A DNA stretch of 64,000 nucleotides from a virus: the IMG/VR virus record IMGVR_UViG_3300002835_006866, positions 1 through 64,000 of that record. The stretch is one strand, 5' to 3'. The position numbers and the translations under genes are program-made. Below, piece after piece: positions 37,253 through 41,709 of the stretch. Numbering within the stretch: position 1 is the first letter of the stretch; the number at the start of each line of letters is the position of its first letter. The notes under the pieces are model-generated. The model was not told where the DNA came from, did no database searches, and saw nothing but the letters and a program-made list of their open reading frames with translations.

Positions 37253-37425
37253 AATTGATAAGTGAATATATGAGTGAGAATGGCGAAAGGACTGCCAAGG
37301 TCTATGTGAACGAAGAAGAAAAGAAATTCGTAGTTTCATTTAAAGATGTTTTTGGAGTACACTATACATCCAAATTTACTAAACTACAATCAGCAGAAGA
37401 TTCTGCGGAGGATTATGTGCTATGA
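37249..37425 (+). CDS. Small hypothetical protein (58 aa, below ORF-track cutoff)
   Basis: ATGA overlap with gp46 and with def; MKLISEYMSENGERTAKV...SAEDSAEDYVL fills the gap exactly. Confidence 0.7.
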   Translation: MKLISEYMSENGERTAKVYVNEEEKKFVVSFKDVFGVHYTSKFTKLQSAEDSAEDYVL

Positions 37426-38012
37426 GTGATGATATTTTAAAGATTGATACATCCGTCAACTTGGGAAAAACAGAAGTAATTGAACCTTTACCAGTATACG
37501 ATGACAATTCTCCAATGTTAAGAATGGTAATGCCTGAGTATACAGACCCATTACCTTCACCAGCAATGAACAAGTTGATTAAACAACTTCATTTAACTCG
37601 ACAGAAGTATAAAGGCCTTGGTTTATCCGCTAATCAATGCGGCATAATGAAAAGAGTTTTTGTTATTGGTTATGAGGACATGGAACTTGCCTTTATTAAT
37701 CCAAAGGTAATCAATATGTCGGATGATTTGAAAAAAGAACCTGAAGGTTGCCTCTCTTACCCAGGTTTATTTCTTAAAATAAGCAGGCCTAGTTGGATTG
37801 AAGTAGAGTTTATCAATCAAAATGGTGAAACAAAAACTACTACACTGAGTGGTCTAACTGCCAGATGTTTCTTACATGAATTAGATCACATGAACGGTAT
37901 CAGATTTGTTGAACATGCAGGTTCATTAGCAATTAAAATGGCAAAGCAAAAACAACAAAAGATGCTTAAAAAGATAAAGAGAGCTGTGAAAAATAATGAG
38001 TTATCGATTTGA
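37422..38012 (+). CDS. def: Peptide deformylase
   Basis: GLSANQCG, EGCLS, HELDH: all three PDF motifs. Confidence 0.95.
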   Translation: MSDDILKIDTSVNLGKTEVIEPLPVYDDNSPMLRMVMPEYTDPLPSPAMNKLIKQLHLTRQKYKGLGLSANQCGIMKRVFVIGYEDMELAFINPKVINMSDDLKKEPEGCLSYPGLFLKISRPSWIEVEFINQNGETKTTTLSGLTARCFLHELDHMNGIRFVEHAGSLAIKMAKQKQQKMLKKIKRAVKNNELSI

Positions 38013-39273
38013 TCCAAAAGATGATGTAGAAACACAATGGGATAAATGGAGAGATTCCGGCATTGTGTATGAGAACATTGATGAGAGTGATCTTCGGGAG
38101 AGGGTCATTCGTGATTTGTCCTATGTTTCACAAATGGATGTTAAAGAGTATACTTTGTTCCAGAAATGGTGTGAAGTGCAAGATAGATATCCATCTATTG
38201 TGGTCAATGATTTGTGGGAAGGAGAGAAACGAGTCATCTCCGACCCGAATCAACAGAAGGCTATTGATGAAATCAAGAGCAACTTTTGGGTACAAAACGA
38301 TGTTGATGATTACTTAAACATTGAGCCAGAACTCCTATATACAAATAAAGAAGATGATTTACCTGAGTTGTGGAATTGTATACGTACATTTTCTTCAACG
38401 ATGAAAAACAATTCTAATATTGGTCGTAACTTAAATTTTGTTGTACGTGATAAAGTAACTAAAAAGTATCTTGGTGTTACTTGCATCAGTTCAGACTTTC
38501 TTGATTTAACACCAAGAGATAACTTTATTGGCTGGGAAAGAGAAAAGAAAACTCAGGGTGGTATGATTAATCATACAGCCATTGGTTCAACAATTGTTCC
38601 ACTACAACCTCTCGGTTTTAATTATGTTGGTGGTAAATTGTTAGCACTTCTTTGCTTGTCAACACCAATTCAAGAATTATGGGAAAACTTATATGGTGAT
38701 AAACTTGTTGGTATAACCACGACTTCTTTGTATGGTAAAACAAAGGCCGGTGGTCTGTCTCAATACGATAATCTAGATTTTTGGCAGCCAATGGGTTTTA
38801 CTTCAGGCTCAGTTTCATTTGAACCTCTGGCAGAAACACGTTACATGATTCGTGAGTGGTTAAAAACAAATCACACCAGAAAATATTTTGAGTGGTATGT
38901 TGCAAAGAAACCATCTGGTCAACCACATAAACGTGACCATAAAAACAGATCGCTGTCTTTTGCATACAACAAACTTTCTGTACCAAAAGAATTGATTCGT
39001 TCCGAACATGCAAGAGGAATTTATTTTTCGCCATTGTATGATAAGACTTGTGAATTTCTTCGTGGCGAAAATGATGGCAGTAACATGGTAAAATTATTTG
39101 ATACAAGTGTCGAGAATCTTACCAATGTTTGGAAACAAAAACATGCCAAACCGAGAATCAAACAATTGGCAAAGAAAGGTAGAATATCTACCGAAAACCT
39201 TTTTTATGATGATCTTGCCGTCTTAACCTGGCAAGAAACAAAAGATAAATATTTGCCTCAAGTGGGTCGATAA
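37996..39273 (+). CDS. DUF4338/DruA-like protein, copy 1
   Basis: GR.L.F.V.D....KYLG, PLQPLGFNYVGGKLLAL, TTSLYG, SQYD, G.TSG. Confidence 0.65.
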   Translation: MSYRFDPKDDVETQWDKWRDSGIVYENIDESDLRERVIRDLSYVSQMDVKEYTLFQKWCEVQDRYPSIVVNDLWEGEKRVISDPNQQKAIDEIKSNFWVQNDVDDYLNIEPELLYTNKEDDLPELWNCIRTFSSTMKNNSNIGRNLNFVVRDKVTKKYLGVTCISSDFLDLTPRDNFIGWEREKKTQGGMINHTAIGSTIVPLQPLGFNYVGGKLLALLCLSTPIQELWENLYGDKLVGITTTSLYGKTKAGGLSQYDNLDFWQPMGFTSGSVSFEPLAETRYMIREWLKTNHTRKYFEWYVAKKPSGQPHKRDHKNRSLSFAYNKLSVPKELIRSEHARGIYFSPLYDKTCEFLRGENDGSNMVKLFDTSVENLTNVWKQKHAKPRIKQLAKKGRISTENLFYDDLAVLTWQETKDKYLPQVGR

Positions 39274-39284
39274 TCTGATATAAT
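39253..39284 (+). promoter_or_regulatory. TTGCCWC-class promoter upstream of the tRNA-like RNA
   Basis: TTGCCT-N20-TATAAT with TGn extended -10. Confidence 0.55.
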
Positions 39285-39294
39285 CTTTTCTAGT

Positions 39295-39357
39295 GCGGTG
39301 AGTCCGAGACAGCCTTCCCCCGAAGGTAGAGAGGTTTAACTCCTCTGAACCGCTCCA
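39295..39357 (+). ncRNA. 63-nt tRNA-like RNA with encoded 3' CCA
   Basis: Acceptor-like GCGGTGA/GAACCGC-T-CCA; T-arm AGAGG-TTTAACT-CCTCT; small GTC-CGA-GAC arm; GCCTTC-CCCC-GAAGGT arm without a 7-nt anticodon loop. Confidence 0.65.
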
Positions 39358-39375
39358 CCCTTATCAAAGTGATAA

Positions 39376-39426
39376 CTGTTGCAAATACCGCAACAGGTTG
39401 ACAAACCTCCACTTTTGTGTTACCAT
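39376..39426 (+). promoter_or_regulatory. Early sigma70 promoter with upstream inverted repeat
   Basis: CTGTTGC-N7-GCAACAG then TTGACA(39398)-N17-TACCAT with TG extension. Confidence 0.7.
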
Positions 39427-39453
39427 TAACCTATACTGACAAAGGTTAACGAT

Positions 39454-41709
39454 ATGACAACTTTTACTGTTGAACAAAAGTCTCAGCTTGCTAAACTTAT
39501 GGCAACTGAGAACCTTACGGTCGAACACCAAAAAATTCGAACTGCTATGTTCGATACAAAAAACCGTGTTCTCTACTTGCCAATTTGGCAAAATATGTCT
39601 GGCCACCTTTATGACCTTTTGACCGGTCATGAAGTTGGCCATGCTTTGTACACTCCTGCGGAAGGTTGGCATGATGTTGCTACCGACAAGTCTAAAGGCA
39701 AAGGATACAAATCATTCCTAAATGTTCTCGAAGATGCTCGAATCGAGAAAAAAGTAATTCGTAAATACCCCGGTCTTCGGCTTTCTTTCCGCAAAGCTTT
39801 CAATGACCTATTTGAGCGTGATTTCTTTGGCATTAAAGATCAAAACATTGACAGCCTTTCCTTTATTGATCGATTGAATTTGTACACCAAGAGCCAATAC
39901 TCTTTAGATATCGGTTTTACCGATGAAGAGCAATTGATGGTTCAAGAAGTACAAGCTCTAGAAACTTGGGAAGATGTAGTAAAACTAGCCGATAAAATTT
40001 ACCAATATTCTAAAGAAGAGCAATACCAACTGGAAACGATTCAAGATTTTTCCAATTCCAACGGCTCTTATGATGGTGAAGAAGAATTTGATTTCGATGA
40101 TATTGAATCTGAAGAAGATGAAACCGATGGTGAACCAGATTCAACTTCTGAAGGTGGTGATAAAAACTCCAATCCGGAAAATTCTGAAAACTCCCAAGAT
40201 GATTTCAATTCTGAAGGTGAAAAATCCAATGGATCAAATCTAGAATCTAGAAAAGAATCACAAAATTCTTTTGATAATGGCTTCGATGATTTTTCACCTG
40301 GATGCCAAACAGATGAACAGTATCGCAAGAATGAAGATAAACTTTTGGATGAAAAATGCAAACCTTACTTGTATTTGAATATGCCAACTCCGAATTTGGA
40401 TGTCATTGTTACTCCTGCAAAGCGAGTACAACAACTTCTATCGGATAGTTTTGCTTCACAGATTGCTATAAATCGGTTCACGGCAAATGATGTAAACAAA
40501 TTTGTTCAAGATTTCAAAACCAAAAACGAAAAGTATATCAACCTTTTGGTGAAAGAGTTTGAAATGCGTAAGGCTGCAAAAGCTTTTAGCAAATCAAAAC
40601 AATCGGATACTGGTGATATTGATGTTTCCAAATTGTCTCTTTACAAGTTTGATGATAATATTTTCCGTAAACTTACGATTGTGCCAAAAGGCAAATCGCA
40701 TGGCATGATTCTTCTTTTGGATTATTCTGGTTCCATGTCACAAAACATGGCCGGCTCGATTGAACAAATTCTTGTTTTATCTTTGTTTTGCCGTAAAGTG
40801 AATATTCCTTTTCATGTTTATGCGTTTTCAAATTGCACAGCCACATGGTATATTGATAACGAAAAATCTTATGATGTAAGAAAGCCAGAATCTTTTAGTC
40901 AAAATCTAAATGAATTTGGTTCCTCTGATCTTATTCTTCGTGAATACTTGAACTCAAATATGGGAAATGCTGAGTTTAACAAAGCATTGAAGAATATGAT
41001 TTTGCTGAAAATGTCGTATGCTGGTCGTGGCACTCGGTATATTATGCGGCCACAAAGTGAATCGTTATCAAATACACCAATGAATGAGGCGATCATAGCA
41101 ATGAAACCTATTATGGAAAAATTCAAGAAAACCAATAACTTGGATATTACAAATTTGGTCATTGTTCATGACGGTGAATCTGATGATATCAATCGCTATC
41201 ACAAAGAGCCCAATGAAGAAAATTCTGGGTATACTGGTTGGTACAATACTACTTCACAAAACGTGATTATGCAGGATAAAAAAATAAAGTTTCAATCAAA
41301 AATTGAAACTAATTTGAATCAATCTCTTTTGAAGTGGTTTTCACAAACGACTGGTTCTAAAATTTTTGGTTTCTTTATTGTTCCACCAACCAACATTAGT
41401 CGGGTATTGATGTCAAAATACTGTGATAAGAATGGTAATCATTTGCCTTACAATGCCGATATGTGGGATATAAAGAAAGAATTAGCTAAAAAATTCAGAA
41501 AAGAAAAATACCTTCTTTCTAAGAACCCTGGATTTGATTCATTTTTCTTTATAAATGGTGGTGATGATCTTTTGGCTGAAGATGAGGAACTTGAAATTGA
41601 AGGTAAAATAACTTCGGCTAAATTGAAAAATGCCTTCATGAAATATAATAAGAGCAAACAAATCAATCGAATTCTTGTTTCTAAATTCATTGAAGGTATT
41701 GCAACTTGA
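39454..41709 (+). CDS. HExxH metallopeptidase-like + VWA domain protein (CobT-like partner of MoxR ATPase)
   Basis: HEVGH, N..EDARIE, long acidic linker, MIDAS DYSGS...NTP...HDGE. Confidence 0.8.
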   Translation: MTTFTVEQKSQLAKLMATENLTVEHQKIRTAMFDTKNRVLYLPIWQNMSGHLYDLLTGHEVGHALYTPAEGWHDVATDKSKGKGYKSFLNVLEDARIEKKVIRKYPGLRLSFRKAFNDLFERDFFGIKDQNIDSLSFIDRLNLYTKSQYSLDIGFTDEEQLMVQEVQALETWEDVVKLADKIYQYSKEEQYQLETIQDFSNSNGSYDGEEEFDFDDIESEEDETDGEPDSTSEGGDKNSNPENSENSQDDFNSEGEKSNGSNLESRKESQNSFDNGFDDFSPGCQTDEQYRKNEDKLLDEKCKPYLYLNMPTPNLDVIVTPAKRVQQLLSDSFASQIAINRFTANDVNKFVQDFKTKNEKYINLLVKEFEMRKAAKAFSKSKQSDTGDIDVSKLSLYKFDDNIFRKLTIVPKGKSHGMILLLDYSGSMSQNMAGSIEQILVLSLFCRKVNIPFHVYAFSNCTATWYIDNEKSYDVRKPESFSQNLNEFGSSDLILREYLNSNMGNAEFNKALKNMILLKMSYAGRGTRYIMRPQSESLSNTPMNEAIIAMKPIMEKFKKTNNLDITNLVIVHDGESDDINRYHKEPNEENSGYTGWYNTTSQNVIMQDKKIKFQSKIETNLNQSLLKWFSQTTGSKIFGFFIVPPTNISRVLMSKYCDKNGNHLPYNADMWDIKKELAKKFRKEKYLLSKNPGFDSFFFINGGDDLLAEDEELEIEGKITSAKLKNAFMKYNKSKQINRILVSKFIEGIAT

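Follow-up and report, generated by a model that had tools for sequence, protein, structure and literature searches.

In a 64,000-nucleotide stretch of viral DNA (positions 1 to 64,000 of the IMG/VR record IMGVR_UViG_3300002835_006866, hereafter the window), we identified a 63-nucleotide (nt) element that lies directly downstream of a gene of the DruA/DUF4338 family and folds as a miniature transfer RNA (tRNA). Comparison with its relatives indicates that this element is almost certainly a real small-RNA gene under selection. It represents a new and widespread class of phage small RNA, derived from tRNA-Gly, that is missed by standard tRNA finders and by Rfam; whatever its function, such finders and Rfam thus overlook tRNA-like phage genes that are strongly conserved and exist in at least 81 distinct variants. 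We tentatively favor a role for this tRNA-Gly mimic as a private, non-decoding glycyl carrier for the GNAT-fold protein encoded by the adjacent DruA-family gene. No description of the RNA was found in the literature searched.

The acceptor stem of the mimic (39295-39301 with 39347-39353) consists of GCGGT paired with ACCGC, giving five Watson-Crick pairs, which are continued by a G.A and an A.G pair; the acceptor stems of its relatives contain six to seven pairs. Inside this stem are a D hairpin of three base pairs (bp) (GTC-CGA-GAC, 39302-39310), an anticodon-like arm (GCCTTC-CCCC-GAAGGT, 39312-39327) whose 6-bp stem carries a CCCC tetraloop, and a T arm (AGAGG-TTTAACT-CCTCT, 39330-39346) with the loop TTTAACT. 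The RNA ends with the discriminator base (T in the DNA, U in the RNA, at 39354) and an encoded CCA (39355-39357). An earlier description made from the sequence alone (the sequence-only reading) had listed this acceptor stem, D hairpin, CCCC arm, T arm and CCA, as well as the promoter element TGATATAAT 10 nt upstream, and all of these are present in the sequence. Its structure therefore stands; the glycine identity, the large family and the positions in tRNA clusters elsewhere, which are described below, were not recognized there. The minimum free energy fold of 39295-39357 was the same cloverleaf (-21.5 kcal/mol, z-score -2.1), with 5 of 200 shuffled sequences folding equally well, so that the signal from the single sequence is modest on its own and the comparative data are decisive. 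As the sequence-only reading had anticipated, ARAGORN (in bacterial, relaxed, metazoan-mitochondrial and mammalian-mitochondrial modes) made no call on the element or elsewhere in the contig. Likewise, no Rfam family matched the window or the rest of the contig at its gathering score, and nothing relevant appeared at an expectation value (E) of up to 10 in 39150-39500, where the models considered included tRNA, transfer-messenger RNA (tmRNA), Y RNA and mascRNA.

We scanned IMG/VR with the DruA protein and obtained 80 related loci, in which this protein was 73-94% identical at the amino-acid level. All 77 loci with a complete intergenic region between the DruA gene and the downstream peptidase gene contained at least one GCGG...CCGC-T-CCA element of 63-70 nt. 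In blastn comparisons the element was 80-91% identical, versus 70-80% for the flanking coding sequence. Among 36 carriers of the type seen in the window (type A), mean column identity within the element was 0.93, and it fell from 1.0 at the last A of the CCA to 0.42 at the next base. These sharp edges place both predicted functional ends of the RNA. At no related locus did a normal 76-nt tRNA occupy this site, the outcome that the sequence-only reading had named as the mark of a simple pseudogene; the same mini form, or variants of 64-70 nt, was found instead. A blastn search of deposited phage genomes with two family variants and the intergenic region of the window (39270-39460) gave no relevant match.

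Covariation was evaluated on two alignments. The first (A1) contained 25 distinct homologues of 63-64 nt, all of type A, aligned by plain MAFFT. When RNAalifold was applied to A1 with no structure supplied, it returned the same four helices, with 18 pairs, 7 of which showed compensatory double changes. When the structure from the sequence-only reading was imposed, 91.8% of the cells formed pairs and 7 of 21 pairs showed double compensatory changes. The covariation score on A1 was 0.261, compared with 0.078 for shuffled alignments (none of 500 reached the observed value) and at most 0.07 when the pairing partners were slid. The T stem was paired in 100% of cases and included three covarying pairs, and the fifth acceptor pair switched between U-A and A-U. 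We then widened the family by a pattern scan of IMG/VR and by the covariance models R1 and R2, which brought it to at least 81 distinct sequences of 63-70 nt. The window element scored 90.1 bits with R1 and 38.3 bits with R2 and was the sole match in the window and in the 95.8-kilobase (kb) contig from which it comes. A MAFFT alignment of the long variants (A3) misaligned the 3' side of the long hairpin in about one quarter of the rows, and for this reason pairs were counted on a model-fitted alignment (A4) and, separately, on A1, which is free of gaps. In A4, which holds 87 distinct rows including four canonical tRNAs matched by R2 and leans towards the model structure, 18 of 23 pairs showed double changes, and the covariation score was 0.474 versus 0.121 for shuffled and at most 0.115 for slid partners. 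The third pair of the mini D hairpin also covaried (GTC/GAC, GTT/AAC, GTG/CAC and GTA/TAC). The covariation of all four helices, together with conservation above that of the flanking coding sequence, bears out the earlier argument that the cloverleaf is not a product of random decay.

The same alignments suggest, with good confidence, that the mimic does not decode. A canonical anticodon stem of 5 bp carries a 7-nt loop that includes U33; the window element instead has its CCCC loop, and it lacks the elbow features of tRNAs (G18G19 of the D arm and U54-U55-C56 of the T loop). The pair that closes the loop covaries among the 25 type-A sequences (C-G in 19, U-A in 6), which leaves a tetraloop of CCCC or CCCA. 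Across the family the loops are CCCC, CCCA, UCCCC, UCCCA, GUCCA, UUCCC, UACCC, CACCC and CUCCAA, that is, 4-6 nt on stems of 5-8 bp, and the positions equivalent to 32 and 38 are Watson-Crick complementary in every member. The family has no G18G19, its T loop is UUUAACU or UGCRAAU, and the D loop of the window type is only 3 nt long. The complete 214-kb genome of one relative (G001) carries a type-A mimic in the DruA intergenic region and canonical tRNA-Gly(UCC) and tRNA-Gly(GCC) genes in its tRNA cluster, and because these genes coexist the mimic is an addition and not a decayed replacement. At the head of the tRNA cluster of this genome (L203:542-615), ARAGORN also called a tRNA with the anticodon UUA ('tRNA-Stop'), which would read ochre codons.

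What the mimic retains points very strongly to an origin from tRNA-Gly. In A4, the pairs G1-C72, C2-G71 and G3-C70 were invariant and G4-C69 was present in 86 of 87 rows, while pairs 5-7 varied freely with compensation; U73, the CCA, G53-C61 and two cytosines in the loop of the long hairpin were likewise invariant across the family. Model R2 gave 27-45 bits on canonical phage tRNA-Gly genes, and its single match outside this isotype was a tRNA-Met at 23.9 bits. The published recognition set of bacterial glycyl-tRNA synthetase (GlyRS) comprises U73, G1-C72, C2-G71, C35 and C36 (PMC9976931); the invariant positions of the acceptor end match it, and the two loop cytosines are candidate counterparts of C35 and C36. 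The bacterial enzyme contacts the first four acceptor pairs (PMC9976931, PMC9908026); mutants of C35 lose activity 105- to 1500-fold, and an acceptor-T minihelix of tRNA-Gly is charged (PMC9908026). With moderate confidence, the match between these positions and the conserved nucleotides suggests that the mimic is glycylated.

Our favored model is as follows. The small RNA would be transcribed from its own promoter as a separate phage gene, and host tRNA-processing enzymes would trim it to G1...CCA, with RNase P cutting the 5' end. Host GlyRS would then charge it with glycine, because its acceptor end preserves exactly what GlyRS reads there. The charged mimic would be excluded from translation, since a tetraloop replaces the anticodon loop and there is no D-loop/T-loop elbow, and it would hold activated glycine in reserve for the upstream-encoded DruA-family enzyme with its GNAT fold. 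By analogy with the Mom protein of phage Mu, this enzyme may pass glycine on to an acceptor outside the ribosome. The foremost candidate for that acceptor is DNA adenine; the overlap of the DruA gene with a peptide deformylase gene in this clade also allows for a protein amine. With a carrier of its own, the phage would leave host Gly-tRNAGly untouched and would not have to compete with translation for it. Among the functions that the sequence-only reading had proposed, that of a donor for a non-ribosomal transferase, with the DUF4338 protein as the candidate, is the best supported; use of the mimic as a donor by a DruA-like enzyme nevertheless stays a tentative proposal, as the link was drawn from fold resemblance and gene neighborhood. 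The most specific version of the model, an orthogonal virus-encoded aminoacyl carrier in which a host-charged mini tRNA-Gly that ribosomes cannot use feeds a Mom-like DruA GNAT that glycylates phage DNA or another target, is more speculative still.

The analogy with Mom is based on recent work on that enzyme. Mom was shown in 2026 to take glycine off Gly-tRNAGly and attach it at N6 of adenine in double-stranded DNA, after which a rearrangement yields 6-NcmdA (PMC13219725). It accepts all three Escherichia coli tRNA-Gly isoacceptors but not Gly-tRNAAla; its authors inferred that it probably reads the acceptor end, and they noted the cost of drawing on the host translation pool (PMC13219725). 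A private carrier would fit this chemistry, because the RNA keeps glycine acceptor identity, has lost its decoding features and sits behind a gene for a Mom-like GNAT.

We evaluated the DruA protein in sequence and structure. It matched Pfam DruA (PF14236) at 67.7 bits (cut-off 27) and phrog_19197, and no other Druantia gene was recognized among the nine neighboring open reading frames (ORFs) scanned. AlphaFold2, supplied with a 44-sequence DruA alignment from a full library search, gave a predicted local distance difference test score of 90.9 for the full protein; a model of the isolated domain scored 93.6. The model consists of an N-terminal helical/beta-hairpin domain (residues ~1-100), a GNAT core (~105-370) and a helical insertion (279-326). 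In an exhaustive VIA-align search with the full model, Mu Mom (8bv8_B) ranked first (Z 9.9, root-mean-square deviation 4.2, 175 aligned residues), followed by generic GNATs at Z 9.1-8.0 and FemA at 7.9; with the isolated domain, Mom was again first (Z 10.6, deviation 3.7, 169 aligned) and the next rows scored 10.2-9.0. Foldseek against the PDB returned weak GNAT rows (E of 0.025 or higher). The GNAT fold of the model is solid, and DUF4338 has been termed a GNAT domain (PMC10853773). A cyanophage member of the same PHROG was independently annotated as structurally Mom-like by the authors of that genome (PMC12801897). A search of PDB sequences with the DruA profile yielded nothing relevant, and a structure-atlas look-up of the N-terminal domain (residues 1-104) yielded nothing informative. 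In four Synechococcus phages (S-SCSM2R, S-SSM7, S-CAM9 and S-T4; L207, L209, L210 and L211), a distant DruA-like phrog_19197 gene lies between the clamp-loader genes gp44 and gp62, and this position in the replication module fits a DNA-directed role.

Several observations weigh against the proposed role. The specific likeness of the DruA model to Mom is not solid, as the top structural rows are near-tied within one Z unit; comparison of DruA by hhalign with Mom and with a 32-sequence Mom alignment gave a probability of 1% or less, and Pfam Mom (PF25680) did not match the protein, even at E up to 1. DruA may also use an acyl-CoA donor, because its conserved Q-x-x-G and GGK motifs fall where acyl-CoA GNATs bind coenzyme A. 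On the side of charging, the two invariant loop cytosines, the putative counterparts of C35 and C36, lie in a closed loop of 4-6 nt on a stem of variable length, which makes recognition of the anticodon domain by GlyRS uncertain. The adjacency of mimic and DruA gene over 77 loci comes from one clade, so that their co-location is largely inherited and not a set of independent events. In lineages whose DruA is 61-67% identical, the mimic adjoins DruA in many; in others the two are separated by about 7 kb and the mimic is part of a tRNA cluster. Cyanophages with a distant DruA-like gene carry canonical tRNA-Gly(UCC) only, or none, and in a DruA-like lineage of about 31% identity (P0192-like) neither a tRNA nor a mimic was detected, be it within 8 kb of the gene or elsewhere in the incomplete fragments of up to 105 kb. 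The DruA enzyme family thus does not require the mimic, just as Mu manages without one, and the RNA may have a different user. The scan with another DruA-like representative, P0141, gave no viral relative.

The position of the mimic also varied across lineages. In several lineages of low guanine-plus-cytosine content it lay inside the phage tRNA cluster and not beside DruA: it was 5 nt upstream of a canonical tRNA-Gly(GCC) in L123 and L188, and together with a tRNA-Gly(UCC) in L090. Two different mimics in tandem, 2-6 nt apart, were observed at L061:1361-1500, L067:4347-4486, L078:1877-2015, L099:287-430 and L063:4339-4478; typically the loop was of the (U)CCCC type in one and of the GUCCA or UUCCA type in its partner, as though the phage maintained a pair of 'isoacceptors'. 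The Pelagibacter phages Mosig and HTVC008M, whose DruA is 55-60% identical, had no mini form. Both carry, 4-6 kb downstream of DruA, an atypical 74-nt tRNA-Gly(ACC)-like gene (L201:1501-1574, which is Mosig MT647606.1 7779-7852, minus strand; L202:1501-1574, which is HTVC008M 91140-91213). The anticodon ACC of this gene lies in the loop UUACCAA, and its D and T loops are non-canonical: G18G19 is absent, and the T loop reads GGCAGTA or AGCGTTA. ARAGORN called the HTVC008M copy as tRNA-Gly(ACC) and missed the Mosig copy. This gene may be a full-size counterpart of the mimic family, and its presence alongside DruA counts in favor of the carrier model.

Four other explanations were weighed against the carrier model. 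Phage tRNAs that counter tRNA-directed defenses are an established theme, and the mimic might act as a decoy or sponge, independently of DruA, for host factors that attack tRNA-Gly or Gly-tRNAGly, such as TacT/AtaT2-type GNAT toxins that acetylate Gly-tRNAGly; the toxin would be soaked up, or the real pool protected. The specificity of TacT is set by U73 and G71 (PMC9976931), both of which are invariant in the mimic family, and such a role would agree with the strong predicted promoter of the RNA and with a location that is next to DruA in some lineages and within the tRNA cluster in others, which shows that adjacency to DruA is not obligatory. However, a substrate mimic is poorly suited to titrating a catalytic toxin, no tRNA-Gly-directed defense is known for the hosts, and a decoy would explain neither why the mimic stays beside a GNAT gene in more than 100 contigs nor why tandem pairs have different loops. 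We therefore regard a decoy as unlikely, although it ranks second after the carrier model. A regulator that acts by binding, with no glycine donation, seems less probable again. Such an RNA might titrate GlyRS or tRNA-processing enzymes, mimic uncharged tRNA and so perturb host stress signaling, or pair through its C-rich loop with G-rich mRNA. Regulators of tRNA-like form exist, and the invariant CC(C) of the loop could pair with GGN or Shine-Dalgarno-like sequences; but it is the acceptor end, with its encoded CCA, that is most strongly constrained, as expected for aminoacylation and not for loop pairing, the loop context varies (CCCC, GUCCA, UACCC and others), and no target was identified. 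Nothing in our analysis supported the stringent-response modulator that the sequence-only reading had suggested.

That the mimic is a genuine but odd decoding tRNA-Gly, akin to the mitochondrial tRNAs that lack a D arm and supplying GGN decoding, is very improbable. For some family members, L160 and L099 among them, a structure with an extended stem, a 7-nt loop, U33 and a UCC or CCC anticodon can be drawn, and some lineages have the mimic in their tRNA clusters, but this explanation has to contend with the 4-nt CCCC/CCCA loop of the window type and its covarying closing pair, with 32/38 positions that are always complementary on stems and loops of varying length, with the missing elbow (T loop UUUAACU, 3-nt D loop), and with canonical tRNA-Gly genes in the same genome and no ARAGORN call. 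A decaying tRNA pseudogene or a chance fold could account for the z-score of only -2.1 for the single sequence and for the silence of the detectors. It is contradicted by the comparative data, in which the element is more conserved than the coding sequence around it, has sharp conservation edges at -1 and the CCA, and shows compensatory changes in every helix over at least 81 distinct variants, and it is hardly credible.

The glycyl-carrier model has both precedents and points of difference among known systems. Mu Mom (PF25680, PDB 8bv8), in which R111, S124, D149 and R151 are essential, is likewise a phage GNAT-fold enzyme with a helical insertion whose donor is glycine on a tRNA with glycine acceptor identity, and it ranks first, near-tied with generic GNATs, among the structural matches of the DruA model; Mu, in contrast, has no tRNA of its own and draws on host tRNA-Gly. 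The DruA protein belongs to a different Pfam family, has no detectable sequence or profile similarity to Mom and carries an extra N-terminal domain, and its proposed donor and target are predictions. In Staphylococcus, non-proteinogenic tRNA-Gly species used by FemX/A/B have glycine identity, have lost elbow features and are reserved for a GNAT-fold aminoacyl-transferase outside translation. The logic proposed for the mimic is the same, but the staphylococcal tRNAs are cellular and full-size with a normal UCC anticodon loop, whereas the mimic is viral, is 63 nt long and has a tetraloop, and neither FemAB (PF02388) nor Acetyltransf_6 (PF13480) was found in the three genomes scanned (G000, the complete G001, and G002), while control genomes matched.

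Canonical tRNA-Gly genes of T4-like phages (UCC or GCC) share the first four acceptor pairs, U73 and the encoded CCA with the mimic, with which they coexist; they differ in being 72-75 nt long and called by ARAGORN, with a normal D arm, a 7-nt anticodon loop and a TTCGA T loop. The tRNA-like domain of tmRNA, the bacterial Y RNA YrlA, mascRNA (a cloverleaf, about 60 nt long, whose anticodon arm has shrunk) and the tRNA-like structures of plant viruses also use an acceptor/T-arm half with CCA outside decoding, but the mimic is a free-standing phage gene with glycine identity and no Rfam match. Mitochondrial tRNAs without a D arm resemble it in that reduction, and in the extended anticodon stem of its longer members; they decode, whereas the mimic has a closed loop and received no call in the mitochondrial modes of ARAGORN.

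If the carrier model is correct, this would be, to our knowledge, the first virus found to supply a dedicated non-ribosomal tRNA. The mimic would be a natural minimal substrate of bacterial GlyRS, helping to define what GlyRS and Mom-like enzymes need for recognition, and the tRNA-dependent chemistry of DNA hypermodification described for Mom in 2026 would extend, as a self-contained module, to abundant aquatic T4-like phages. The model would also provide the DruA/DUF4338 family, to which the DruA of the Druantia defense system belongs, with its first lead on function; an orthogonal carrier, in particular, would mean that the DruA enzyme of Druantia type I depends on aminoacyl-tRNA.

The source of the window is an uncultured aquatic phage, a T4-like myovirus, whose contig is a fragment with an estimated completeness of 54%; among named phages, Mosig and HTVC008M, both of Pelagibacter, are closest to it, with a nucleotide identity of about 65%. 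The mimic occupies a 180-nt gap between the DruA/DUF4338 ORF and the phrog_459 'peptidase' ORF (39454-41709), and the peptide deformylase gene (37422-38012) ends within the 5' part of the DruA ORF. Genes around the locus also encode gp47/gp46-like SbcCD, a 2-oxoglutarate-Fe(II) oxygenase, a CobS-like AAA protein and the gp45 clamp. The features of the locus are listed in Table 1.

Table 1. Features at the mini tRNA-Gly locus (window coordinates).
Feature	Position	Strand	Basis or remark
DruA/DUF4338-family protein, 425 amino acids	37996..39273	+	Pfam PF14236, phrog_19197; candidate user of the mimic
Extended -10 element TGATATAAT of the small-RNA promoter	39276..39284	+	Ends 10 nt upstream of G39295
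Short 5' leader of the mini-tRNA	39285..39294	+	Column conservation in type-A relatives
Mini tRNA-Gly mimic, 63 nt	39295..39357	+	Fold, covariation, covariance-model scores, conservation edges
Inverted repeat CTGTTGC-N7-GCAACAG, downstream of the RNA gene and upstream of the peptidase promoter	39376..39396	+	
Sigma-70-type promoter TTGACA-17-TACCAT (with TG) for the phrog_459 peptidase gene	39398..39426	+	10 of 12 matches, conserved in relatives

The sequence-only reading assigned the RNA its own promoter, and this is upheld by the TGATATAAT element and by the full TTGACA-N17-TATAAT/TAAGAT promoter that many relatives have at the same place in the alignment. In the window, the -35 element would fall inside the end of the DruA ORF, and a TTGCCTC motif is located at 39253-39259, 20 nt upstream of the -10; a simple promoter scan did not list this promoter, because its -35 is poor. 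At the position of this motif, L019 and L039-41 have TTGCCAC or TTGCCTC, and most other relatives have TTGACA at 17 nt. Position -1 of the leader was T in 36 of 36 type-A relatives, and U(-1) is the leader base favored by bacterial RNase P; position -2 was A in 97% (G in the window).

Downstream of the RNA, the peptidase promoter marks the end of the small-RNA transcription unit. The inverted repeat that precedes it is not followed by a T run and was not listed by a terminator scan, and TGTTG...CAACA is found at the equivalent place in most relatives. It could be a terminator or processing hairpin of the small RNA, or an operator. Just upstream of the -35 of the peptidase promoter, a TGTTG-N-CAACA repeat (39376-39403 in the window; also in L003-L082) is kept in sequence with few compensatory changes, which makes an operator bound by a protein seem likelier here than a hairpin in the RNA.

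Two further observations concern the intergenic region. In the gap between the DruA and MazG-peptidase genes, Mosig and HTVC008M have, in place of the mimic, a different small conserved hairpin (GCTGTGCGA..TGACGCA; L001:5170-5200 and L002:4655-4690). In three relatives (L042, L052 and L058) the intergenic region was 721-736 nt long, with about 500 nt of additional sequence between the DruA stop codon and the mimic.

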